Positions 3,196 to 45,264 of a stretch of 64,000 nucleotides of DNA are shown here, one piece after another. Made by a program: the position numbers and the translations under genes. Position 1 is the stretch's first letter. The number at the start of each line of letters is the position of its first letter. Below the pieces are notes generated by a model. It saw only the letters and a program-made list of their open reading frames with translations, had not been told where the DNA came from and did no database searches. Origin of the DNA: Escherichia phage ECO07P3. The stretch lies in the sequence record OP172786. The stretch is one strand, 5' to 3'.

Positions 3196-3441
3196 TTAAT
3201 TACCACGGGCTGCATTAGCAACGGCATAAGCGTACTGAACATTAGCGTCCTTAAACGTACCTTTAGAGGTATCTATTTCTGCCTTAAAGCCGCCTTTAGC
3301 CATAACATCAGCAAATTCTTTACGGAAGGCCATTGCATCAAGACCTTTCCATGATGATTTGTGCTTAGCGAATTCAAGACCAGCGTAGTTGACAGCTTTA
3401 GCCAATTTATTATCAATGACCCATTTACCGGCTTTAGGCAC
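3196..3441 (-). CDS. Hypothetical Lys/Ala-rich small protein (GTG start)
   Basis: 81 aa ORF. I checked the start codon: it is GTG (plus cac at 3439-3441). Frame is open upstream to 3576 with no ATG. No resemblance to the DenV C-terminus. Confidence 0.35.
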   Translation of the reverse strand: MPKAGKWVIDNKLAKAVNYAGLEFAKHKSSWKGLDAMAFRKEFADVMAKGGFKAEIDTSKGTFKDANVQYAYAVANAARGN

Positions 3442-3473
3442 AAACTTCGGGCCTTTTTGTTTAGAGAACAGTT

Positions 3474-3710
3474 TTAAATTCCAGCGATTAACTCGATTTG
3501 GCGTAAACGTAAAAATTCGAGTTTGTTGTAAAAGAATGTTACGTGGCCTGTGCCTAAGATAAATGTTGGAGAGATTTTAAAATCCTTTACACGTTTACCG
3601 TTTTGAACATGTTTACGGACTGCACCAAATACGCGTGGTAATTCACGATACTCAGCCATAAGATGTTGGTCGGTCAGTTCGGAAACGAGTGTTAAATTGA
3701 TACGAGTCAT
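3474..3710 (-). CDS. denV: Endonuclease V (DenV, pyrimidine-dimer glycosylase) homolog, truncated at ~78 aa versus 138 aa in T4; possible pseudogene
   Basis: [35 protein letters not shown]...[20 protein letters not shown] then stop. N-terminal catalytic residues (Thr2, Arg3, Arg22, Glu23, Arg26) are present; the C-terminal ~60 residues including the aromatic WYKYY segment are absent. The real start is the internal Met of the ORF-track ORF. Confidence 0.65.
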
Positions 3711-3734
3711 AATTTCCTCCAAGTAGTTGATGAA

Positions 3735-3770
3735 TGTATAGTATCAAAACCCTTGGAGGAAGTAAACAAC
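3735..3770 (-). promoter_or_regulatory. Early promoter upstream of denV
   Basis: Minus strand TTTAC, ~17 nt, TACTAT, then ggaggaaattATG. Confidence 0.4.
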
Positions 3771-4051
3771 TATTTTTCTGAAGCGCCTGAAATATATTTT
3801 TCAAGACGTTGTTTCATCAGCGAGCCGTTCTTAGCGATTTCTTCCGGTTTGTCGCACATACGCAACAAGGCTTCAAGCTTAACGATATCACTGGTGCGCT
3901 CAAATTTGCGAGTATCTATCTTACTAGCAAGTTCAGAAATACGTGCTAATAGACTTTCAGCTTCAACCAAAGCTGCACCTAGCTTAGTTGCAAATGTGTC
4001 AGTAGCTTCGTTAAGAATAGATTCTGATAAAAATTCACTATATGTTTTCAT
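3770..4051 (-). CDS. Phage internal protein (IP) with capsid-targeting sequence, at the ipII/ipIII locus
   Basis: Starts [10 protein letters not shown] from the internal Met, fitting the T-even capsid-targeting sequence consensus MKTYQEFIAE with the gp21 cleavage context L-x-E; lies between denV and e. Confidence 0.7.
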
Positions 4052-4536
4052 ATATACGCTTTCCAAGTTCCTGTTTTAAATGTTGAGATTACGCGTTTAG
4101 CGCGATTAGGTGTCTGACGGTACCATTTAGATTGGGCTAGATTTACTGCCGCTTCGTCCCAGCGTTTCTGTTGAAGCATACGAAGAGAATTAGTAAAACC
4201 AGCGACGCCTGCTACGCCCATTTGGAAGACCATATTGACCAACGCACATCGACGAACTGCATCTAAAGAATCATATACCGGTTTAAGTTTAGCATTACCC
4301 AAGATTCCGCGAACGGCTTTATCAACGTCTTCATTAAATAGCTTTTCAGCCTCATCAAGGGTAATTGTACCGTTGCATTTACGTCCGATCATTCTGTCAA
4401 GTTCAGCTTTAGCTACGGCTAAAGACGGGTTCTTTGTTACTAAATGGCCTATGCCAATCGTCCAAAAGCCTTCAGTGTCTTTGTATAAAGTCAGTCTAAG
4501 ACCTTCATCTATACGCAACATTTCAAATATATTCAT
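4048..4536 (-). CDS. e: Lysozyme (endolysin, T4 e homolog)
   Basis: 162 aa; [21 protein letters not shown]...TIGIGHL and ...RAKRVI..F.TGTW align closely with T4 lysozyme but with many substitutions. Confidence 0.95.
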
Positions 4537-8077: not shown

Positions 8078-8112
8078 CTCATAATATCTCAATCATGAGC
8101 CTGTGTAAACTT
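8078..8112 (-). promoter_or_regulatory. Early promoter (minus strand)
   Basis: Minus strand TTTACA, 17 nt, TATTAT. Confidence 0.4.
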
Positions 8113-8374
8113 ATTTCATATTATTGAAATATTCTTCTGCGATTTCGTCGTTATCATGGTAAACTTTAGAAGACAGTTTAACATAACCTTCAGCAGTGAA
8201 CATGTTAATCACAACCTTTACAGTATACCACTGACCATCTTCATTACCCATTACTGCATAGGTTTCAAACATCGGATGGTCAGGACCGATAACTTTAATA
8301 TCATTCACTGTACGACCGAAATCTTCTGAAACGCATTTCATAAAGAAGTTGAACAGTTCGCCGTAATTATCCAT
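8111..8374 (-). CDS. Hypothetical protein
   Basis: ORF-track ORF 8111..8437; probable start is the internal Met (MDNYGELFNFF) preceded by ggagaataaaATG. Confidence 0.45.
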   Translation of the reverse strand: MDNYGELFNFFMKCVSEDFGRTVNDIKVIGPDHPMFETYAVMGNEDGQWYTVKVVINMFTAEGYVKLSSKVYHDNDEIAEEYFNNMK

Positions 8375-8414
8375 TTTATTCTCCAAGTTGTTTTCTGTAT
8401 CAGTAGTTGATAGT

Positions 8415-8450
8415 TGTATAGTACCACGGAAGAACATGGATGTAAACAGT
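8415..8450 (-). promoter_or_regulatory. Early promoter (minus strand)
   Basis: Minus strand TTTACA, 17 nt, TACTAT, then ggagaataaaATG. Confidence 0.4.
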
Positions 8451-8580
8451 TTTGTGAAAAAATTTTAAAAAGTTTTAGGGAATTCTAGGGAAGGGATGGG
8501 CAATTAAAGGATAGGATAATATATTATAAAGGGTATAAACTAAATGATGCCTAGAGAGGCGCGGAAAGGCCTAGATACCA

Positions 8581-8614: not shown

Positions 8615-8884
8615 TTATTTGATTTGTTTAGCAGACCAAATGCGGTCTTTAATAATTTTTTGGATGTCTTCAACATACTCAAGAGAGTGAACATGTGGAT
8701 TATCTTTGAAACTATAGGCACGGGCTAACTTTTGGCCTTCGGTTTTGATTACTAAAAGCTCTTTAAGGATAGCTTCATACTTAGCGATAATTCCTTTAAC
8801 AATATTTTTTTTCTTGTGTAGCTTTAGGATCTGCTTTAGGAGCAGGTTTACCCGAAGCCTTTGCAAAAGCAGCACCAGTAGCAA
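8615..8884 (-). CDS. Doubtful ORF; overlaps the 3' end of the upstream IP-like gene
   Basis: 89 aa ORF. I found no in-frame ATG/GTG/TTG downstream of the overlap, so the start is unresolved. Confidence 0.25.
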   Translation of the reverse strand: MLLVLLLQRLRVNLLLKQILKLHKKKNIVKGIIAKYEAILKELLVIKTEGQKLARAYSFKDNPHVHSLEYVEDIQKIIKDRIWSAKQIK

Positions 8885-9089
8885 CTAAACTTTTCCAGGC
8901 CATACTAACCGCATTTCCCGTAAATCCTTCGGCTTTCATATCACGAGCAAATTGGAATCGTGATTCATCGGAAGCATCTTTATAGGAATATTTACCCGCG
9001 GCAATGGCAGCTTTTGCAACAGCTTGAATTTCAGTGCTAGATGCTTCATTTAACACCGCTTCATTTAAAAATTGAGCATATGATTTCAT
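8796..9089 (-). CDS. Internal-protein-like gene with capsid-targeting sequence, in the e-to-tRNA region
   Basis: 97 aa; N-terminus MKSYAQFLNEAVLNEA fits the capsid-targeting consensus; Ala/Lys-rich body; flanked by terminator hairpins on both sides. Confidence 0.6.
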   Translation of the reverse strand: MKSYAQFLNEAVLNEASSTEIQAVAKAAIAAGKYSYKDASDESRFQFARDMKAEGFTGNAVSMAWKSLVATGAAFAKASGKPAPKADPKATQEKKYC

Positions 9090-9130
9090 CTTATTTCCTG
9101 TTTTAATTCGTGGTTTTAATATACTTATTT

Positions 9131-9162
9131 ATACTAAAAAGCCCCAACCTTTCGGTCGGGGC
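9131..9162 (-). terminator. Rho-independent terminator (minus strand)
   Basis: Minus-strand reading gccccgacc-gaaa-ggttggggc followed by ttttt; near-duplicate of the hairpin at 8581-8605. Confidence 0.65.
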
Positions 9163-9841: not shown

Positions 9842-9917
9842 TGGTCGAGGCAGTAGGGATCGAACCTACGACCTAGGACTTAGAAGGTCCTTGCTCTTCC
9901 TTCTGAGCTATGCCCCG
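9842..9917 (-). tRNA. tRNA-Arg (anticodon TCT)
   Basis: Cloverleaf folded by hand from the reverse complement; anticodon loop cTTCTaa; T-loop GGTTCGATCC; CCA encoded. Confidence 0.85.
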
Positions 9918-9921
9918 TAAT

Positions 9922-9997
9922 TGGGGTGACCGATGGGAGTCGAACCCATGACTACGAGAATCACAATCTCGAGTTCTACCAACTGAACTACGGCCAC
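9922..9997 (-). tRNA. tRNA-His (anticodon GTG)
   Basis: Anticodon stem cgaga/tctcg with loop ttGTGat; T-loop GGGTTCGACTCCC. Not part of the T4 set as I recall it. Confidence 0.75.
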
Positions 9998-10111
9998 ATT
10001 AATACCTACTCCAACAATCAAGATGTCTTCACACGAAATTAAGAGAAGAGTGATCAGTTCAACCCCGATAATCGCGTCAAGTAGATATTAATGTGACAAT
10101 TGTCACAAATT

Positions 10112-10186
10112 TGGCGGACGTGATAGGATTCGAACCTATAACCAATCGCTTAACAGGCGATCGCTCTGCCATTGAGCTACACATCC
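10112..10186 (-). tRNA. tRNA-Asn (anticodon GTT)
   Basis: Anticodon stem atcgc/gcgat with loop ctGTTaa; T-loop GGTTCGAATCC; CCA encoded. Confidence 0.8.
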
Positions 10187-10190
10187 AAAT

Positions 10191-10277
10191 TGGTGGGGAG
10201 TGATGGAGTCGAACCACCCGAGTCGCAATGACAATGGATTTACAGTCCACACCGCTACCTCTACGGGATAACTCCCC
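10191..10277 (-). tRNA. tRNA-Tyr (anticodon GTA), long variable arm
   Basis: Anticodon loop ctGTAaa; class II variable arm; T-loop GGTTCGACTCC; CCA encoded. Confidence 0.75.
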
Positions 10278-10290
10278 TTAATTCTTAATT

Positions 10291-10365
10291 TGGTGGCCCT
10301 GGGTGGAATTGAACCACCATCTGGCGATTATGAGTCGCTTGCTTGAACCTTCCAGCTACAGGGCC
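10291..10365 (-). tRNA. tRNA with CAT anticodon (Met, or Ile if lysidine-modified as in T4 tRNA-Ile)
   Basis: Anticodon loop ctCATaa; T-loop GGTTCAATTCC; CCA encoded. Confidence 0.75.
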
Positions 10366-10366
10366 T

Positions 10367-10443
10367 TGGTGCTGATTGACGGAATCGAACCGCCGACATC
10401 CTCATTACAAGTGAGTTGCTCTACCTACTGAGCTAAATCAGCA
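10367..10443 (-). tRNA. tRNA-Thr (anticodon TGT)
   Basis: Anticodon loop cTTGTaa; T-loop GGTTCGATTCC; CCA encoded. Confidence 0.8.
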
Positions 10444-10447
10444 AAAC

Positions 10448-10537
10448 TGGCGGAGGCGATAGGATTTGAACCTATGAGTCGCCGGAGCGACTGCCGGTTT
10501 TCAAGACCGGTGCATTAAACCACTCTGCCACGCCTCC
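10448..10537 (-). tRNA. tRNA-Ser (anticodon TGA), long variable arm
   Basis: Anticodon stem ccggt/accgg with loop cTTGAaa; long variable arm; T-loop GGTTCAAATCC; CCA encoded. Confidence 0.85.
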
Positions 10538-10539
10538 AG

Positions 10540-10613
10540 TCTCCATACAAGGATTTGAACCTTGGGCCTCCTGATCCCAAATCAGGCGCTCTACCAAACT
10601 GAGCTACACGGAG
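10540..10613 (-). tRNA. tRNA-Pro (anticodon TGG)
   Basis: Anticodon stem cctga/tcagg with loop ttTGGga; T-loop GGTTCAAATCC; CCA not encoded. Confidence 0.8.
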
Positions 10614-10623
10614 TAAATTAAAT

Positions 10624-10697
<74 letters not shown>

Positions 10698-10702
10698 AAA
10701 TT

Positions 10703-10789
10703 TGGTGCGAGAAGTGGGACTCGAACCCACAAGGAAATCATTCCGCAGCATTTTAAGTGCTGTGCCTTTACCAATTTGACCATTCTCGC
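10703..10789 (-). tRNA. tRNA-Leu (anticodon TAA), long variable arm
   Basis: Anticodon loop cTTAAaa; long variable arm; T-loop GGGTTCGAGTCCC; CCA encoded. Confidence 0.85.
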
Positions 10790-10790
10790 G

Positions 10791-10863
10791 CTGGGAATAA
10801 AGGACTCGAACCTTTGCATCCTGGAATCAAAATCCAGTGCCTTACCAACTTGGCTAATTCCCA
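10791..10863 (-). tRNA. tRNA-Gln (anticodon TTG)
   Basis: Anticodon stem ctgga/tccag with loop ttTTGat; T-loop GGTTCGAGTCC; first gene of the cluster in transcription order. Confidence 0.85.
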
Positions 10864-11250: not shown

Positions 11251-11655
11251 TTAACCTTTATCAACAATAGTATGTGTATGGGCATTTACAATTTGCCACC
11301 AGTCGAAACTATCGCCAAATCGTTTTGATTTATTGTCTTCAATAATTTGGCGTAATTCATCTTCTGTTTCAGCATACGCAATCAAATCATCATATCCACC
11401 GCAAGGATAGTAATTATCGCCTGCGAACAAAAGAAAATTTACTTTAGATGGGTCTACATAATAATGCTCTTTAGGATATTTAGTTCCTTTCCAATCAGTT
11501 ACTTCAACATAACGGTAAGAAAATCCATTTTTACTTTCAACCCAACTCCACGCTTCAAAAGGAGTATTAAAAACTCTATCAGGTATTAAATTACCTTCAA
11601 AATGAGAAGGATTTGCATAATCCCCAGCATAAACATAATATTCGTTAATATTCAT
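11251..11655 (-). CDS. Hypothetical protein (134 aa)
   Basis: ORF tightly packed with neighbours; aromatic-rich; no recognisable domain. Confidence 0.5.
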   Translation of the reverse strand: MNINEYYVYAGDYANPSHFEGNLIPDRVFNTPFEAWSWVESKNGFSYRYVEVTDWKGTKYPKEHYYVDPSKVNFLLFAGDNYYPCGGYDDLIAYAETEDELRQIIEDNKSKRFGDSFDWWQIVNAHTHTIVDKG

Positions 11656-11841
11656 TTATTCACCTTTAGAAATTTTATCCATAACGATAGCAATTAAACC
11701 AATTAAAAATGCTACTACAAGTGAAAAAACATTTTCTGCTGTAGTTAATAATCCGCATATAAATCCAACAAACATTGAAAAACTAAAAGCGGAAGCAGAA
11801 ATTGCAATAGCAACATTTCGAATTAATTCACAACGTTTCAT
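11656..11841 (-). CDS. Small membrane protein (61 aa)
   Basis: Two hydrophobic segments (VAIAISASAFSFSMFVGFICGLL and VFSLVVAFLIGLIAIV). Confidence 0.4.
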   Translation of the reverse strand: MKRCELIRNVAIAISASAFSFSMFVGFICGLLTTAENVFSLVVAFLIGLIAIVMDKISKGE

Positions 11842-11860
11842 TTTATTCTCCTCTGTAGTT

Positions 11861-11905
11861 GATAGGGTAATAGTATCACTACCCCATCTAAAAGTAAACT
11901 GTTTT
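11861..11905 (-). promoter_or_regulatory. Early promoter plus stem-loop cassette
   Basis: Minus strand: TTTAC, 17 nt, TACTAT; embedded inverted repeat gatagggta/taccccatc; followed by gaggagaataaaATG. Confidence 0.45.
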
Positions 11906-11911
11906 TATAAA

Positions 11912-12220
11912 CTATTTTATTCCGCGTGATGCAATTGTGTTCTGCCGTTTAACACCAGTTTGTTTAAAGTCATGATTGTCGATTTGATCGGTACGAGCAA
12001 CACCGAATGATGATTTAATCTTAGCTTTAGATCCTTTAGTTATAGAAATAAACATCTCGGAAGCCCCTTTCTTAAAGTCCGAGGCGATTACTTCAACGCC
12101 GTTCTTAGCAAGTGACCTCAGAATTGCCTCCGCGTACTCATCATCAAGACTCGCCTGAGTATTAATAACGAATGTCTTTGGTGCAGCCGCTTCATTGATA
12201 AATTCTTGATATGTTTTCAT
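11912..12220 (-). CDS. Internal protein with capsid-targeting sequence, at the ipI locus
   Basis: MKTYQEFINEA from the internal Met is a near-consensus capsid-targeting sequence; lies next to 57B where T4 ipI sits. Exact start (12220 or 12232) is uncertain. Confidence 0.7.
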   Translation of the reverse strand: MKTYQEFINEAAAPKTFVINTQASLDDEYAEAILRSLAKNGVEVIASDFKKGASEMFISITKGSKAKIKSSFGVARTDQIDNHDFKQTGVKRQNTIASRGIK

Positions 12221-12249
12221 TTTGATTTCCATTTAGTTTTGTTTTGATA

Positions 12250-12290
12250 GGGTAATAGTATCACAACTAAACCACCGTGTAAACAATTTA
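12250..12290 (-). promoter_or_regulatory. Early promoter (sigma70-like -35 TTTACA / -10 TACTAT)
   Basis: Minus strand GTTTACAC, 17 nt, TACTAT, upstream of the IP gene. Confidence 0.4.
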
Positions 12291-12560
12291 TTTTAAATAA
12301 ATTGCATATTTTTTATAACCAGCCGTCTCGTGACGCAGACCTTTTTCATTAGCAAAGCGTTCAATATTATTAATTTGATTCTGATCAAGTTCTGAAATAT
12401 CAAATACAAAAAAGTTTCGTTTATTTCCTAACGTTACATGATTCGTCAAATCAATGTTATAAAGATGATTTATATTATCAATCATAGTCTTAACAGATTT
12501 GCTAATTTTTACTTCTTCATTAAGAGCAGATTCAACGATAAACTCTTTGAAAGTTTTCAT
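12288..12560 (-). CDS. Second internal-protein-like gene with capsid-targeting sequence
   Basis: 90 aa; N-terminus MKTFKEFIVESALNEE fits the capsid-targeting consensus. Confidence 0.6.
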   Translation of the reverse strand: MKTFKEFIVESALNEEVKISKSVKTMIDNINHLYNIDLTNHVTLGNKRNFFVFDISELDQNQINNIERFANEKGLRHETAGYKKYAIYLK

Positions 12561-12580
12561 TTTATTTTCCTAATTAATTT

Positions 12581-12625
12581 TGATGAGGTAATAGTATCAC
12601 TACCTCATCAACGTGTAAACAACTT
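12581..12625 (-). promoter_or_regulatory. Early promoter plus perfect 10-bp stem-loop cassette
   Basis: Perfect inverted repeat tgatgaggta ... tacctcatca around the TACTAT -10, with -35 TTTACA upstream (minus strand); followed by ggaaaataaaATG. Confidence 0.45.
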
Positions 12626-12632
12626 TGTGAAA

Positions 12633-13329
<697 letters not shown>

Positions 13330-13330
<1 letters not shown>

Positions 13331-14043
13331 TATAGTACCTTTAGTGTATTTTTAATTTTAGAAAAAAGTTCTTCAAGAGAACCATCGTTTGTAATTACTA
13401 AATCGCCATCACGAATTGGCAATCCAGCTTCTGTAATATGAGTATCATTGGATTTTTGACCAGGACGAACTACATGAATTACTGTAGCACCCATCGCCCT
13501 AGCCGCATCCATTTCATGATCTTGACGAGTATCAGGAACGATATAATAATCATAACCTGAGTTAAATTTATCAAGATAATCTAAAGCAAATAATTTTACC
13601 CAATACATGCGGTCGAAGTTATTAACAATCAAATCCGTACCTAGGGCTTGCATCAGACGACGGACTGACCATTGATCTTCAATATTATTTATAACGTCAG
13701 CAATCTTGTTAAATGCTACGAAATTAACTGCGTCATCAAAAATAAACACACCTTTAATTGGGCTTTTACTATTAAGATAGCAAAATGCTTGTTCCATAAT
13801 CGTAATTACTTCTAATTTAGTCAGATTTAAATTAGTCTCACGATCATAGTCAATTCCTTCAAACTCTTTACGAGTTAAACAAGGATAGCCAGTGTTTGCT
13901 GCAAATACACCCCATGCATAAGCCAATGCATCCTTAATAGGACCAGCAAGTTGATATTTAACTGCAGAATAATTATTCATAATAAAATCTGCAGTAGTAT
14001 CTTTTCCACTACGCTTTACACCACTTAAAAAGATTAGTTTCAT
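13330..14043 (-). CDS. 1: Deoxynucleoside monophosphate kinase (gp1)
   Basis: 237 aa; P-loop GVKRSGKDT; gene order. Confidence 0.9.
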
Positions 14044-39909: not shown

Positions 39910-41534
<1,625 letters not shown>

Positions 41535-41535
<1 letters not shown>

Positions 41536-41777
41536 TGGAAGGTTTAATTGAAGCTATTAAATCAAACGACCTCGTAGCCGCTCGTAAATTATTTGCTGAA
41601 GCCATGGCTGCAAGAACGATTGATTTAATTAAAGAAGAAAAAATCGCTATCGCTCGTAATTTCTTAATCGAAGGTGAAGAACCTGAAGACGAGGATGATG
41701 ACGAAGACAGTGATGATAAAGACGACAAAAAAGACAAAGACTCTGACGAAGATGACGAAGACGAGGATGATGAATAA
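41535..41777 (+). CDS. 67: gp67 prohead core protein
   Basis: 80 aa with extreme acidic C-terminus ([14 protein letters not shown]...); gene order. Confidence 0.85.
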
Positions 41778-42202
41778 TGCTTCTGATCCCTGAAACTCAT
41801 GAATTAGTTCTCGAGAATGTCGAAGCACTTATTCCTGAAGCACAGGGTCGCTTTGACGAATTGTCTTCTGCTTTAAATAAAGACGATATAAATACAATTG
41901 TCGAGAATATGCTTGATGATGAAACTGATTTAGCAGTTGCATTAGCTTCTATTAATGAAAATATGCCGTTAAATGAATTCATTGTTAAGCACGTTTCAGC
42001 TCGTGGTGAAATTACACGTACTAAAGACCGCAAAACACGCGAACGTAATGCATTTCAAACCACTGGGCTGTCTAAAGCAAAACGTAGACAAATTGCTCGC
42101 AAAGCTACCAAAACGAAGATTGCCAATCCAGCAGGTCAATCTCGTGCTCAGCGTAAGCGTAAAAAAGCTCTTAAACGCCGTAAAGCATTAGGATTAAGCT
42201 AA
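41777..42202 (+). CDS. 68: gp68 prohead core protein
   Basis: 141 aa; gene order. Confidence 0.85.
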
Positions 42203-42840
42203 TGAATGAACCCCAATTATTAATTGAAACTTGGGGTCAACCTGGCGAAATTATTGATGGTGTGCCAATGCTTGAATCCCACGATGGAAAAGACCTAGGT
42301 TTAAAACCGGGTTTATACATTGAAGGAATATTCATGCAAGCGGAAGTCGTCAATAGAAATAAACGTCTTTATCCAAAACGCATATTAGAAAAAGCGGTAA
42401 AAGACTATATCAATGAGCAAGTTTTAACTAAACAAGCTCTCGGAGAATTAAATCATCCTCCACGCGCTAATGTTGACCCGATGCAAGCCGCTATCATTAT
42501 AGAAGATATGTGGTGGAAAGGAAATGACGTATACGGACGAGCTCGTGTTATTGAAGGTGACCATGGTCCTGGAGATAAATTAGCAGCTAATATTCGTGCC
42601 GGATGGATTCCAGGAGTTTCTTCTCGTGGATTAGGTTCATTGACTGACACAAATAAAGGTTATCGTATCGTAAACGAAGGATTCAAATTAACTGTAGGTG
42701 TTGATGCAGTATGGGGTCCAAGTGCTCCAGATGCATGGGTAACTCCTAAGGAAATTACCGAATCACAGACGGCGGAAGCCGATACAAGTGCCGATGACGC
42801 CTATATGGCTCTCGCAGAGGCCATGAAAAAAGCGTTATAA
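42202..42840 (+). CDS. 21: gp21 prohead core protease
   Basis: 212 aa; gene order. Confidence 0.9.
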   Translation: MNEPQLLIETWGQPGEIIDGVPMLESHDGKDLGLKPGLYIEGIFMQAEVVNRNKRLYPKRILEKAVKDYINEQVLTKQALGELNHPPRANVDPMQAAIIIEDMWWKGNDVYGRARVIEGDHGPGDKLAANIRAGWIPGVSSRGLGSLTDTNKGYRIVNEGFKLTVGVDAVWGPSAPDAWVTPKEITESQTAEADTSADDAYMALAEAMKKAL

Positions 42841-42843
42841 ATA
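42836..42843 (+). promoter_or_regulatory. Late promoter TATAAATA upstream of gene 22
   Basis: Exact consensus, overlapping the gene 21 stop. Confidence 0.55.
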
Positions 42844-42870
42844 TTATTATCTAAACAACAGGACTACAAA

Positions 42871-43680
42871 ATGCTTAAAGAACAACTGATTGCCGAAGCG
42901 CAGAAAATTGATGCTTCCGTTGCTCTTGATAGTATTTTCGAATCAGTTAATATTTCTCCGGAAGCAAAAGAAACTTTCGGCACTGTATTCGAAGCTACCG
43001 TCAAGCAGCACGCCGTTAAATTAGCTGAATCTCATATCGCTAAAATTGCTGAAAAAGCAGAAGAAGAAGTAGAAAAAAATAAAGAAGAAGCCGAAGAAAA
43101 AGCTGAGAAGAAAATCGCTGAGCAAGCTTCTAAATTCATCGACCATCTTGCGAAAGAATGGCTCGCTGAAAATAAATTAGCAGTTGATAAAGGCATCAAA
43201 GCCGAACTGTTTGAATCCATGCTTGGTGGATTAAAAGAGCTCTTTGTTGAACACAACGTTGTTGTTCCAGAAGAATCAGTTGATGTTGTAGCTGAAATGG
43301 AAGAAGAGCTGCAAGAACATAAAGAAGAATCAGCTCGTCTGTTCGAAGAACTCAATAAGCGTGACGCATATATCAATTATGTGCAGCGTGAAGTGGCATT
43401 GAGCGAAAGTACTAAAGATCTGACTGAGTCTCAAAAAGAAAAAGTCTCTGCTCTGGTCGAAGGTATGGATTATTCAGATGAATTCTCAAGTAAATTGAGT
43501 GCCATCGTAGAAATGGTGAAGAAGTCTAATAAAGATGAAAGCACTATTACTGAGGGTATAAATACTCCTGATACTGAAGCAGCCGGACTGAATTTCGTCA
43601 CTGAAGCTGTAGAAGATAAAGCTGCACCTGGTGCAGAAGATATTGTAAGTGTATATGCGAAAGTCGCATCTCGTTTCTAA
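42871..43680 (+). CDS. 22: gp22 prohead core scaffold protein
   Basis: 269 aa, Glu/Lys-rich coiled coil; gene order. Confidence 0.9.
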   Translation: MLKEQLIAEAQKIDASVALDSIFESVNISPEAKETFGTVFEATVKQHAVKLAESHIAKIAEKAEEEVEKNKEEAEEKAEKKIAEQASKFIDHLAKEWLAENKLAVDKGIKAELFESMLGGLKELFVEHNVVVPEESVDVVAEMEEELQEHKEESARLFEELNKRDAYINYVQREVALSESTKDLTESQKEKVSALVEGMDYSDEFSSKLSAIVEMVKKSNKDESTITEGINTPDTEAAGLNFVTEAVEDKAAPGAEDIVSVYAKVASRF

Positions 43681-43698
43681 TTTTAAAGGTTAACACAA

Positions 43699-45264
43699 AT
43701 GACTATCAAAACTAAAGCTGAACTTTTGAACAAATGGAAGCCATTACTGGAAGGTGAAGGTTTACCGGAAATTGCTAATAGCAAACAAGCGATTATCGCT
43801 AAAATCTTTGAAAACCAGGAAAAAGATTTCCAGACAGCTCCGGAATATAAAGACGAAAAAATTGCTCAGGCATTTGGTTCTTTCTTAACAGAAGCTGAAA
43901 TCGGTGGTGACCACGGTTACAATGCTACTAACATCGCTGCAGGTCAGACTTCTGGCGCAGTAACTCAGATTGGCCCGGCTGTTATGGGTATGGTACGTCG
44001 TGCTATTCCTAACCTGATTGCTTTCGATATTTGCGGTGTTCAACCAATGAGCAGCCCAACCGGTCAGGTATTCGCACTGCGCGCAGTATATGGTAAAGAT
44101 CCGATCGCTGCCGATGCTAAAGAAGCATTCCACCCAATGTATGGTCCAGACGCAATGTTCTCTGGTCAGGGTGCTGCTAAGAAATTCCCAGCTCTGGCTG
44201 CTAGCACACAAACCGTTGTAGGTGATATCTATACTCACTTCTTCCAGGAAACTGGTACTGTGTATCTACAAGCTTCCGCTGTAGTAACAATCGATGCTGG
44301 TGCGACTGATGCTGCTAAATTAGATGCTGAAATTAAGAAACAAATGGAAGCTGGTGTACTGGTAGAAATCGCTGAAGGTATGGCTACTTCTATCGCTGAA
44401 CTCCAGGAAGGTTTCAACGGTTCTACCGATAACCCATGGAATGAAATGGGCTTCCGTATCGATAAGCAAGTTATCGAAGCTAAATCTCGCCAGCTGAAAG
44501 CTGCTTACTCTATCGAATTAGCACAAGACCTCCGCGCTGTTCACGGTATGGATGCTGATGCTGAACTGTCTGGTATTCTGGCTACCGAAATCATGCTGGA
44601 AATCAACCGTGAAATTGTTGATTGGATTAACTACTCCGCACAGGTTGGTAAATCTGGTATGACCCTGACTCCGGGTTCTAAAGCTGGTGTATTTGACTTC
44701 CAGGACCCAATCGATATTCGTGGTGCTCGCTGGGCAGGTGAATCCTTTAAAGCTCTGTTGTTCCAGATTGACAAAGAAGCAGTTGAAATTGCTCGTCAGA
44801 CCGGTCGTGGTGAAGGTAACTTCATTATCGCTTCCCGTAACGTAGTTAACGTTCTGGCTTCAGTTGATACTGGCATTTCTTATGCTGCACAGGGTCTGGC
44901 TACCGGCTTTAACACTGATACTACCAAGTCAGTATTTGCTGGTGTTCTGGGTGGTAAATACCGTGTATATATCGACCAGTATGCTAAACAGGATTATTTC
45001 ACTGTAGGTTATAAAGGTCCGAACGAAATGGATGCTGGTATTTACTATGCTCCATATGTAGCTCTGACTCCGCTGCGTGGTTCCGATCCGAAGAACTTCC
45101 AACCAGTAATGGGATTCAAAACTCGTTACGGTATCGGTATCAACCCATTTGCAGAATCCGCTGCTCAGGCTCCGGCTTCTCGCATCCAGAGCGGTATGCC
45201 TTCTATTCTGAATAGCCTTGGTAAAAACGCTTACTTCCGCCGTGTATATGTTAAAGGTATCTAA
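43699..45264 (+). CDS. 23: gp23 major capsid protein
   Basis: 521 aa; MTIKTKAELLNKWKPLLEGEGLPEIANSKQAIIAKIFENQEKDF... matches my recall of T4 gp23 almost exactly. Confidence 0.98.
   Translation: MTIKTKAELLNKWKPLLEGEGLPEIANSKQAIIAKIFENQEKDFQTAPEYKDEKIAQAFGSFLTEAEIGGDHGYNATNIAAGQTSGAVTQIGPAVMGMVRRAIPNLIAFDICGVQPMSSPTGQVFALRAVYGKDPIAADAKEAFHPMYGPDAMFSGQGAAKKFPALAASTQTVVGDIYTHFFQETGTVYLQASAVVTIDAGATDAAKLDAEIKKQMEAGVLVEIAEGMATSIAELQEGFNGSTDNPWNEMGFRIDKQVIEAKSRQLKAAYSIELAQDLRAVHGMDADAELSGILATEIMLEINREIVDWINYSAQVGKSGMTLTPGSKAGVFDFQDPIDIRGARWAGESFKALLFQIDKEAVEIARQTGRGEGNFIIASRNVVNVLASVDTGISYAAQGLATGFNTDTTKSVFAGVLGGKYRVYIDQYAKQDYFTVGYKGPNEMDAGIYYAPYVALTPLRGSDPKNFQPVMGFKTRYGIGINPFAESAAQAPASRIQSGMPSILNSLGKNAYFRRVYVKGI

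Follow-up and report, generated by a model that had tools for sequence, protein, structure and literature searches.

The 64,000-nucleotide stretch of Escherichia phage ECO07P3 analyzed here (record OP172786; the whole stretch is called the window) carries, between genes 57B and tRNA.4, what is almost certainly the ipI-type variable locus of Tequatrovirus, a placement taken from gene order and homology, with the already named internal-protein (IP) genes Ip9 and Ip7 as its occupants. As we picture it, each gene would form a module made of an early-promoter cassette of about 60 nt, a ribosome-binding site with the first 10 or so codons, which would encode a capsid-targeting sequence (CTS), and an unrelated cargo of about 9-10 kDa; the products would be packaged, injected with the DNA and directed against host defense. 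Taken as a whole, and with the target left open, we consider this statement likely to be right. Locus, CTS, both genes and the promoter repeats around them are already known and annotated in RefSeq, so that the finding is a correct re-discovery: the locus has reportedly been described in the literature since Repoila's work of 1994, and the RB32 record itself mentions a "43 bp direct repeat" flanking Ip9 and Ip7. Arbiol et al. (2010, PMC2839356) put the number of known IP variants above 30.

A preliminary description of this DNA, made from its letters, had called the region a hypervariable ipI-type locus with two internal-protein genes, and synteny, homology searches and a survey of related loci agree with it on all three points. 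The minus-strand gene order in the window is gene 1, 57A, 57B, Ip9, Ip7, tRNA.4, tRNA.3, tRNA.2 and an 11-gene tRNA cluster; T4 has the identical order from gene 1 through 57A and 57B to tRNA.4, tRNA.3, tRNA.2 and the tRNA cluster, and its variable slot holds the single gene ipI. Ip9 and Ip7 thus lie in one of the two places that mark an IP locus (between 57B/acb1 and tRNA.4, or beside e/denV), syntenic with T4 ipI. The genes concerned are as follows.

13330-14043, minus strand: gene 1.
13088-13330, minus strand: 57A.
12633-13088, minus strand: gene 57B (the anti-CBASS gene acb1), the conserved left flank, in the position of T4 57B; Pfam PF23474 (Acb1), E = 2.6e-60.
12288-12560, minus strand: Ip9, 90 amino acids (aa), with the CTS MKTFKEFIVE at residues 1-10 (12531-12560) and the cargo at about residues 17-90.
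11912-12220, minus strand: Ip7, 102 aa, with the CTS MKTYQEFINE at residues 1-10, a core at about residues 15-72 and a basic tail at residues 74-102.
11656-11841, minus strand: tRNA.4, the conserved right flank, a hydrophobic and probably membrane protein of 61 aa, in the same position as in T4 and RB32; phrog_1692, E = 6e-35.

Positions 11500-13200 are 99.2% identical to Escherichia phage ECO07P2 (Tequatrovirus). Used as a query, this interval matched 798 phage records and reached at least 80% query coverage in just 36 of them, a pattern of conserved flanks around a variable middle. The immediate neighbor of the ip genes encodes Acb1, a phosphodiesterase acting against the cyclic-oligonucleotide-based antiphage signaling system (CBASS), and the ip locus therefore belongs to a small anti-defense neighborhood; the label "RNA ligase" persists for 57B in several RefSeq records.

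The two open reading frames (ORFs) are where they had first been placed and begin, as read there, with MKTFKEFIVE (12288-12560) and MKTYQEFINEA (11912-12220). For Ip7 the mechanical ORF extends to an upstream ATG at 12232, and the start lies at 12220 in all homologues. The homology search that had been proposed for both proteins gave full-length matches to PHROG families labeled "internal head protein": Ip9 belongs to phrog_7673 (E = 9.4e-56, residues 1-90 of 90) and Ip7 to phrog_2667 (E = 2.7e-42, residues 1-102 against positions 1-101 of 101 in the profile). Ip9 is 100% identical to its counterpart in ECO07P2, 79% to RB15 Ip9 (CAA84463) and 80% to RB32 Ip9, and Ip7 is 97% identical to RB15 Ip7 (CAA84464). 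With tblastn, homologues of Ip9 were found in 174 phage records and homologues of Ip7 in 283, many of them annotated under these names or as internal head protein. The bodies of the two proteins had been called unrelated to each other and to T4 IPI, and so they are: in a seven-sequence BLASTP database, mature Ip9 and Ip7 matched each other and T4 IPI, IPII and IPIII only at E > 0.08.

The mature proteins are basic, at 9.3-9.9 kDa and with isoelectric points (pI) of 8.0-9.7 (9.7 for Ip7, 8.0-9.0 for Ip9), and both are predicted to form small alpha+beta domains. The AlphaFold2 model of Ip9 (predicted local distance difference test score, pLDDT, of 78) has an alpha-beta-beta-alpha-beta-beta domain; that of Ip7 (pLDDT 66) has a ferredoxin-like core followed by a tail predicted to be disordered. 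Neither protein matched a Pfam family above threshold, the Protein Data Bank by sequence in any meaningful way, or an enzyme family in sequence and model searches, and neither resembles processed T4 IPI (IPI*) in sequence or fold. A Foldseek search of the Ip9 model against viral models (BFVD) gave one significant match, an unnamed 535-aa protein with 29% identity, the others being noise, and an exhaustive HMMER search with the Ip9 cargo returned only nine cluster representatives, so this cargo family is small.

The Ip7 tail (residues 74-102; 11912-11999) has pLDDT values below 50 and is strongly basic (pI 10.3), and it is among the most conserved parts of the family, with H83, F85, Q87, T88, G89, K91, Q93 and N94 invariant; such a pattern could mark a binding motif. 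A PADLOC defense-model match of Ip7 to Csn2 was weak and sub-significant (E = 0.006) and was discounted. One 77-aa protein annotated "ip7 protein" in Escherichia phage OLB35 (P0031) was matched by both the Ip7 and the Ip9 queries and, from its alignments, looks like a chimera in which Ip7 residues of about 28-72 are joined to Ip9 residues of about 58-90; it could be a real recombinant within coding sequence or an artifact of assembly or annotation.

Both N-termini had been read as capsid-targeting sequences, and the residues that define such a signal are in place. Every ATG in the six frames of the 64 kb was scanned with a CTS regular expression, which picked out four ORFs only: Ip9, Ip7 and two others at 8796-9089 and 3770-4051. 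All four retain positions 4 (Y/F), 7 (F), 8 (I/L) and 10 (E), and Ip9 (MKTFKEFIVE) and Ip7 (MKTYQEFINE) each have the aromatic residue at 4, F7, I8 and E10. In mutational work on IPIII, residues 4 and 7 serve targeting and residues 8 and 10 processing, and the first 10 residues of IPIII suffice for packaging foreign proteins (reviewed in PMC9026906). The enzyme that would remove the CTS is encoded in the window:

42202-42840, plus strand: gene 21 prohead protease, the expected CTS-removing enzyme; Pfam Peptidase_S77, E = 1.5e-111.

Around it, in 39949-45264, the genes for portal gp20, gp67, scaffold gp22 and capsid gp23 were recognized by Pfam (Portal_T4, GP67, T4_CASP and Gp23); the ORF in the gp68 position (41777-42202) had no Pfam match. 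By analogy with the T4 system we regard CTS-directed packaging and gp21 cleavage of Ip7 and Ip9 as very likely. The CTS would attach the proteins to the prohead scaffolding core, gp21 would cleave after Glu10, and the mature basic proteins would remain in the head to be injected with the DNA. Ip9 has a second L-x-E site, LNE at residues 13-15, which is nearly invariant and lies near the point where the alignment of its CTS-less homologues begins, and gp21 may also cleave there, after Glu15. A 15-residue extended leader with a second LNE cleavage-type motif is common to three of the four CTS ORFs.

The cassette that precedes the two genes was found by a pattern for the T4 early promoter, GTTTAC-N14-GTGATACTATTACC, which occurs in exactly three copies in the 64 kb without a mismatch (0.01 expected by chance). 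The pattern matches lie at 12587-12620, 12251-12284 and 11866-11899, all on the minus strand, before Ip9, Ip7 and tRNA.4. The cassettes that contain them are these.

12580-12640, minus strand: copy 1, upstream of Ip9, with an A/T-rich upstream part, -35 TTTACA at 12614-12619 and -10 TACTAT at 12591-12596.
12244-12304, minus strand: copy 2, upstream of Ip7, with -35 TTTACA at 12278-12283 and -10 TACTAT at 12255-12260.
11859-11919, minus strand: copy 3, upstream of tRNA.4, with -35 TTTACT at 11893-11898 and -10 TACTAT at 11870-11875.

A consensus scan recovered the repeated promoter that had been reported before the two ip genes (-35 TTTACA and -10 TACTAT) and showed a spacer of 17 nt and a TG extension of the -10; the third copy adds to what had been described. 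T4 has the same cassette upstream of ipI and of trna.4, and copy 1 has almost the same sequence as the element that precedes T4 ipI and RB32 ip5. In T4 the IPs are produced in quantity early as well as late (PMC6071114), which fits an early promoter before each ip gene; by analogy with IPI, IPII and IPIII, Ip7 and Ip9 would likewise be made early and late.

The preliminary description had also placed an inverted repeat before each of the two genes, and here it was half right. The stem at 12581-12610 is real and one pair longer than described, copy 1 having an 11-bp perfect inverted repeat (12580-12590 with 12601-12611) that encloses the -10 and folds, as RNA, into a 14-pair hairpin of -21.2 kcal/mol (z = -4.95), but no comparable repeat lies before Ip7: in copy 2 the 5' arm is degenerate or lost, z is -1.8, and 12 of 200 shuffles fold equally well. 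Copy 3 forms a 12-pair hairpin at 11861-11888 (z = -2.7). What is conserved in the cassette is the promoter boxes and the sequence of the 3' arm, not the pairing. An intrinsic terminator was considered for the hairpin and rejected, the -10 hexamer being within the hairpin and no U-run following it, and an Rfam search of the window returned tRNAs only, with no family for the cassette. A weaker fourth relative at 8407-8467 (minus strand; GTTTAC...GTGGTACTAT) is 64% identical to the reference copy, has no hairpin and lies upstream of an ORF at 8111-8437; the predicted promoter part of the cassette belongs to a wider early-promoter family of this genome.

The variability of the locus was surveyed in 34 loci (29 from IMG/VR, recovered with 57B as bait, four phage records and the window). 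Among them, the gap between 57B and tRNA.4 ranges from 83 to 1667 bp and holds 0-6 ORFs, with at least 12 cargo clusters. Ip9 and Ip7 occur together in five loci, in reversed order in one of these surveyed loci (L010), while L009 has Ip9 alone and L037 Ip7 alone. Where the cassette pattern matches both flanks, in T-even-type loci, n genes are accompanied by n + 1 cassettes (one and two in T4, two and three in the window, three and four in RB32), because the cassette also precedes the next conserved gene, tRNA.4.

The boundary of the module can be seen in two comparisons. When the window is aligned with L037, the two flanking alignments overlap by about 104 bp, a stretch that runs from the cassette through the ribosome-binding site to about codon 12. 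In a four-way alignment, the window matches the RB32 57B-to-ip5 sequence from the end of 57B through ATGAAAACTTTCAAAGAGTTT (codons 1-7, MKTFKEF) and RB32 Ip9 thereafter; on this alignment, Ip9 of the window is a recombinant that switches parent at CTS codon 7/8. Ip7 and Ip9 have also exchanged their Y-Q and F-K CTS variants when compared with RB15. The crossover and the swapped variants together indicate that the recombination unit is the promoter cassette plus the CTS and that the exchangeable unit is the cargo. The repeated cassette and CTS (about 100 nt) would thus supply the homology by which cargoes are inserted, deleted and swapped between phages, and the boundary is exact (CTS codon 7/8), hence clean cargo swaps are possible.

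The closest known systems are those of RB15 and RB32, which share with the window the genes, the location between 57B and tRNA.4, the order Ip9 then Ip7 and (in the RB32 record) the flanking direct repeat. They differ from it in gene number: RB15 has four ip genes here (ip5, ip9, ip7 and ip8), RB32 three and the window two. Ip9 of the window has the first-position cassette and CTS codons 1-7 of the T4 ipI/RB32 ip5 type, an arrangement that would result if recombination within the CTS had deleted an ip5 cargo. T4 IPI shares with the window's genes the genomic slot, a cassette on both sides, the CTS and a similar mature size and charge, and IPI*, once injected, inhibits GmrSD, the type IV restriction enzyme of E. 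coli CT596. T4 Ip2 and Ip3 have a CTS nearly identical to that of Ip7 (MKTYQEFIAE versus MKTYQEFINE) and are non-essential injected accessory proteins; they differ in lying at the other IP locus, beside e and denV, in their unrelated cargo and in having experimentally defined targets, GmrSD-ECOR21 for Ip2 and GmrSD-ECOR17 for Ip3 (PMC12373910; PMC9391042).

Repeated promoter elements likewise flank small accessory genes in hyperplastic regions of RB49, phi1 and other T4-like phages. These elements, called PeSL (promoter-early stem-loop), consist of an early promoter of sigma-70 consensus followed by a G+C-rich stem-loop, repeated around ORFans (PMC2839356), and a part in the shuffling of modules through homologous recombination has been proposed for them (PMC2839356; Comeau et al., 2014, PMC4122927). 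Arbiol et al. (2010, PMC2839356) credit Repoila et al. with PeSL-like sequences at the two variable IP loci and treat the T-even IP elements as analogues of PeSL and not homologues, with T4 early promoters and weaker A/T-rich stem-loops. The cassette of the window fits the latter and is not a PeSL: it has a T4 early promoter, its A/T-rich stem, degenerate in copy 2, surrounds the -10 and does not come after the promoter, covariation over 29 variants gives the stem no support, and the unit of homology reaches into the coding sequence for the CTS.

The Ip9 cargo (12291-12512 in the window) was also found outside T4-type IP genes. The occurrences are at 3007-3225 in L005, 2492-2716 in L045, 2192-4243 in L043 and 310-3600 in L044. 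The first, in a Kagunavirus, is a 72-aa ORF without a CTS and 48% identical over the tblastn match; Seuratvirus KS_A3 has a CTS-less Ip9-cargo gene within an array of small genes, and the metagenomic proteins P0033, P0034 and P0038 are further homologues without a CTS, while two distant T4-type homologues keep one (P0032, MKFNEFLTEA; P0036, MKSFKEYLTES). In Ackermannviridae the cargo forms an internal or C-terminal domain of large proteins (ChubbyThor gp130, 683 aa; a ZQ1 protein of 1096 aa; P0037, 861 aa). The N-terminal 100 or so residues of these proteins are 92-97% identical to LIMEstone1 ORF082, and the ZQ1 protein ends in 130 or so residues with 82% identity to LIMEstone1 ORF081; both LIMEstone1 ORFs are annotated "confirmed structural protein." These alignments suggest that the same cargo may be loaded into virions by a different device in Ackermannviridae.

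The occurrence of the Ip9 cargo without a CTS or within Ackermannviridae proteins is possibly a new side result. One could go further and see in this cargo of about 72 aa a mobile effector module shared by four taxonomic groups and delivered by three routes (CTS packaging in T4-like phages, a free-standing CTS-less gene within arrays of small uncharacterized genes in Kagunavirus and Seuratvirus, and an insert in the variable middle of Ackermannviridae proteins), an idea we offer as speculative and rather doubtful. If it were true, the target of Ip9 would matter to very different phages and not merely to those with DNA carrying glucosylated hydroxymethylcytosine (glucosyl-hmC), and Ackermannviridae would own an undescribed system for loading variable cargo into virions. 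Because unrelated phages also use the Ip9 cargo without a CTS, what it acts on is probably not tied to the DNA chemistry of T-even phages, and for the same reason the cargo is testable by plain expression in the host.

As to function, we favor on balance, and with modest confidence, an anti-defense role for Ip7 and Ip9, by analogy with the T4 proteins; once injected, they would most likely bind and block a host defense protein. The best guess for that protein is a variant type IV nuclease, which we name tentatively as the leading candidate, holding it to be the single most plausible target and still rather less than probable. The preliminary description had proposed candidate injected anti-defense effectors, a hypothesis that the field at present applies to the Ip genes as a whole (Silas et al., 2025, PMC12373910): T4 Ip1, Ip2 and Ip3 each block one distinct GmrSD type IV enzyme, with no cross-protection, and both Ip loci have been proposed to be dedicated to GmrSD variants (PMC12373910). 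The adjoining anti-CBASS gene acb1 also counts for such a role, as do the activity of plasmid-borne IPIII without its CTS (PMC9391042) and the small alpha+beta models of both proteins, which matched no enzyme family. Several points weigh against this picture. In plaque assays against active GmrSD variants, ip4-10 gave no reproducible inhibition, the sole apparent signal of ip7, with CLS_011, being one that could not be reproduced (PMC12373910, Supplementary Fig. 9), so the most obvious class of target has already been tried and was negative for the tested variants. We infer packaging, cleavage and injection from the CTS and the T4 analogy, and a literature search for Ip7 and Ip9 together with "internal head protein" found no report of their presence in virions, processing or injection. 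No T4 late-promoter motif lies between 57B and tRNA.4, and so none directly before either ip gene; the nearest on this strand is the following.

13686-13693, minus strand: T4 late-promoter motif TATAAATA, within gene 1.

Late synthesis of Ip9 and Ip7 would need read-through from that motif across 57A, 57B, Ip9 and Ip7. Nor does the stem-loop behave as a selected structure, an idea we dropped: over 29 distinct cassette variants 61% of cells pair, 127 of 500 shuffles reach that value, and covariation scores lower than the mean of the shuffles.

Negative GmrSD tests are what one would expect if Ip7 and Ip9 were injected or early inhibitors of some other defense, be it another modification-dependent nuclease, a DNA glycosylase or a system unrelated to modification. 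The neighbor acb1 acts on a signaling defense, and the Ip9 cargo also occurs in Kagunavirus, Seuratvirus and Ackermannviridae phages, at least some of which have a DNA chemistry other than glucosyl-hmC. Set against this, the GmrSD diversity that was tested is partial (15 groups, 8 active), all three characterized Ips target GmrSD, and the authors of that work hold both Ip loci to be dedicated to this family, so that we consider a non-GmrSD target possible and somewhat unlikely. The same negative tests could be read in line with the classical view of internal proteins, with Ip7 and Ip9 as general basic proteins that fill the head (neutralizing DNA charge or serving head assembly) and have no specific host target. 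Their mature forms, basic and of about 9-10 kDa, do resemble IPI* and IPII*. In T4 each head contains about 360 copies of IPs, which bind DNA at low salt, and the loss of IPIII slows head assembly (PMC9026906). Yet non-homologous cargo is gained and lost between near-identical phages, which fits an arms race better than a structural role; specific targets are now known for all three T4 Ips; the Ip9 cargo stands free and CTS-less in siphoviruses without the T4 head system; and cleavage at residue 10 would leave Ip9 almost neutral (pI 8.0). A head-filling function is, to our minds, quite improbable.

Least probable is that the conserved N-terminus and cassette serve only as recombination homology or as a context for translation initiation, the proteins being early, cytoplasmic and unpackaged. 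Each gene has its own early promoter and T4 IPs are abundant early; CTS-less IPIII works from a plasmid in the host (Srikant et al., 2022, PMC9391042), so its cargo is active without the signal, and Ip9 homologues without a CTS exist. But the amino acids of the CTS are conserved despite synonymous differences between Ip9 and Ip7 (ACT/ACA, GAG/GAA), and precisely at the targeting and cleavage residues; the first 10 residues of IPIII package foreign proteins; and the distant Ip9 homologues P0032 and P0036 retain a CTS at 35-56% cargo identity. Packaged and injected anti-defense proteins thus stay the preferred reading. Known targets are limited to Ip1-3 and the first screen of ip4-10 was negative, so that the role of Ip7 and Ip9 is a recognized question that the present analysis narrows slightly.

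Beyond the ipI-type locus, the window has other features of interest. At the second IP locus (3196-3722, minus strand), about 0.8 kb is missing in comparison with phages of about 98% identity such as Lutter (L047): denV is cut to 82 aa (3474-3722), the IPIII homologue is a remnant of the C-terminal 80 or so residues (3196-3441) with no CTS, and the small IP ORFs annotated in Lutter between them are gone. Judging from these truncations, the phage probably lacks functional endonuclease V and IpIII. The tRNA cluster (9842-10863, minus strand) has 11 genes (Arg, His, Asn, Tyr, Met, Thr, Ser, Pro, Gly, Leu and Gln), versus 8 annotated in T4, and shows no sign of segB, the homing endonuclease gene that splits the T4 cluster.

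The third CTS gene (MKSYAQFLNEAVLNEA; 8615-9089, minus strand) is next to the tRNA cluster, at neither of the classical IP loci, and has the late-promoter motif TATAAATA just upstream (9126-9133). It is shortened to 97 aa, versus 157 aa in ECO07P2, by an extra base in a homopolymer (A8 versus A7 on the coding strand), which may be a true frameshift or a sequencing error. The fourth CTS ORF (3770-4051, minus strand; 93 aa) comes after the lysozyme gene e (4048-4536), which it overlaps by 4 nt, and has no cassette of its own, so co-transcription or translational coupling with e is probable.

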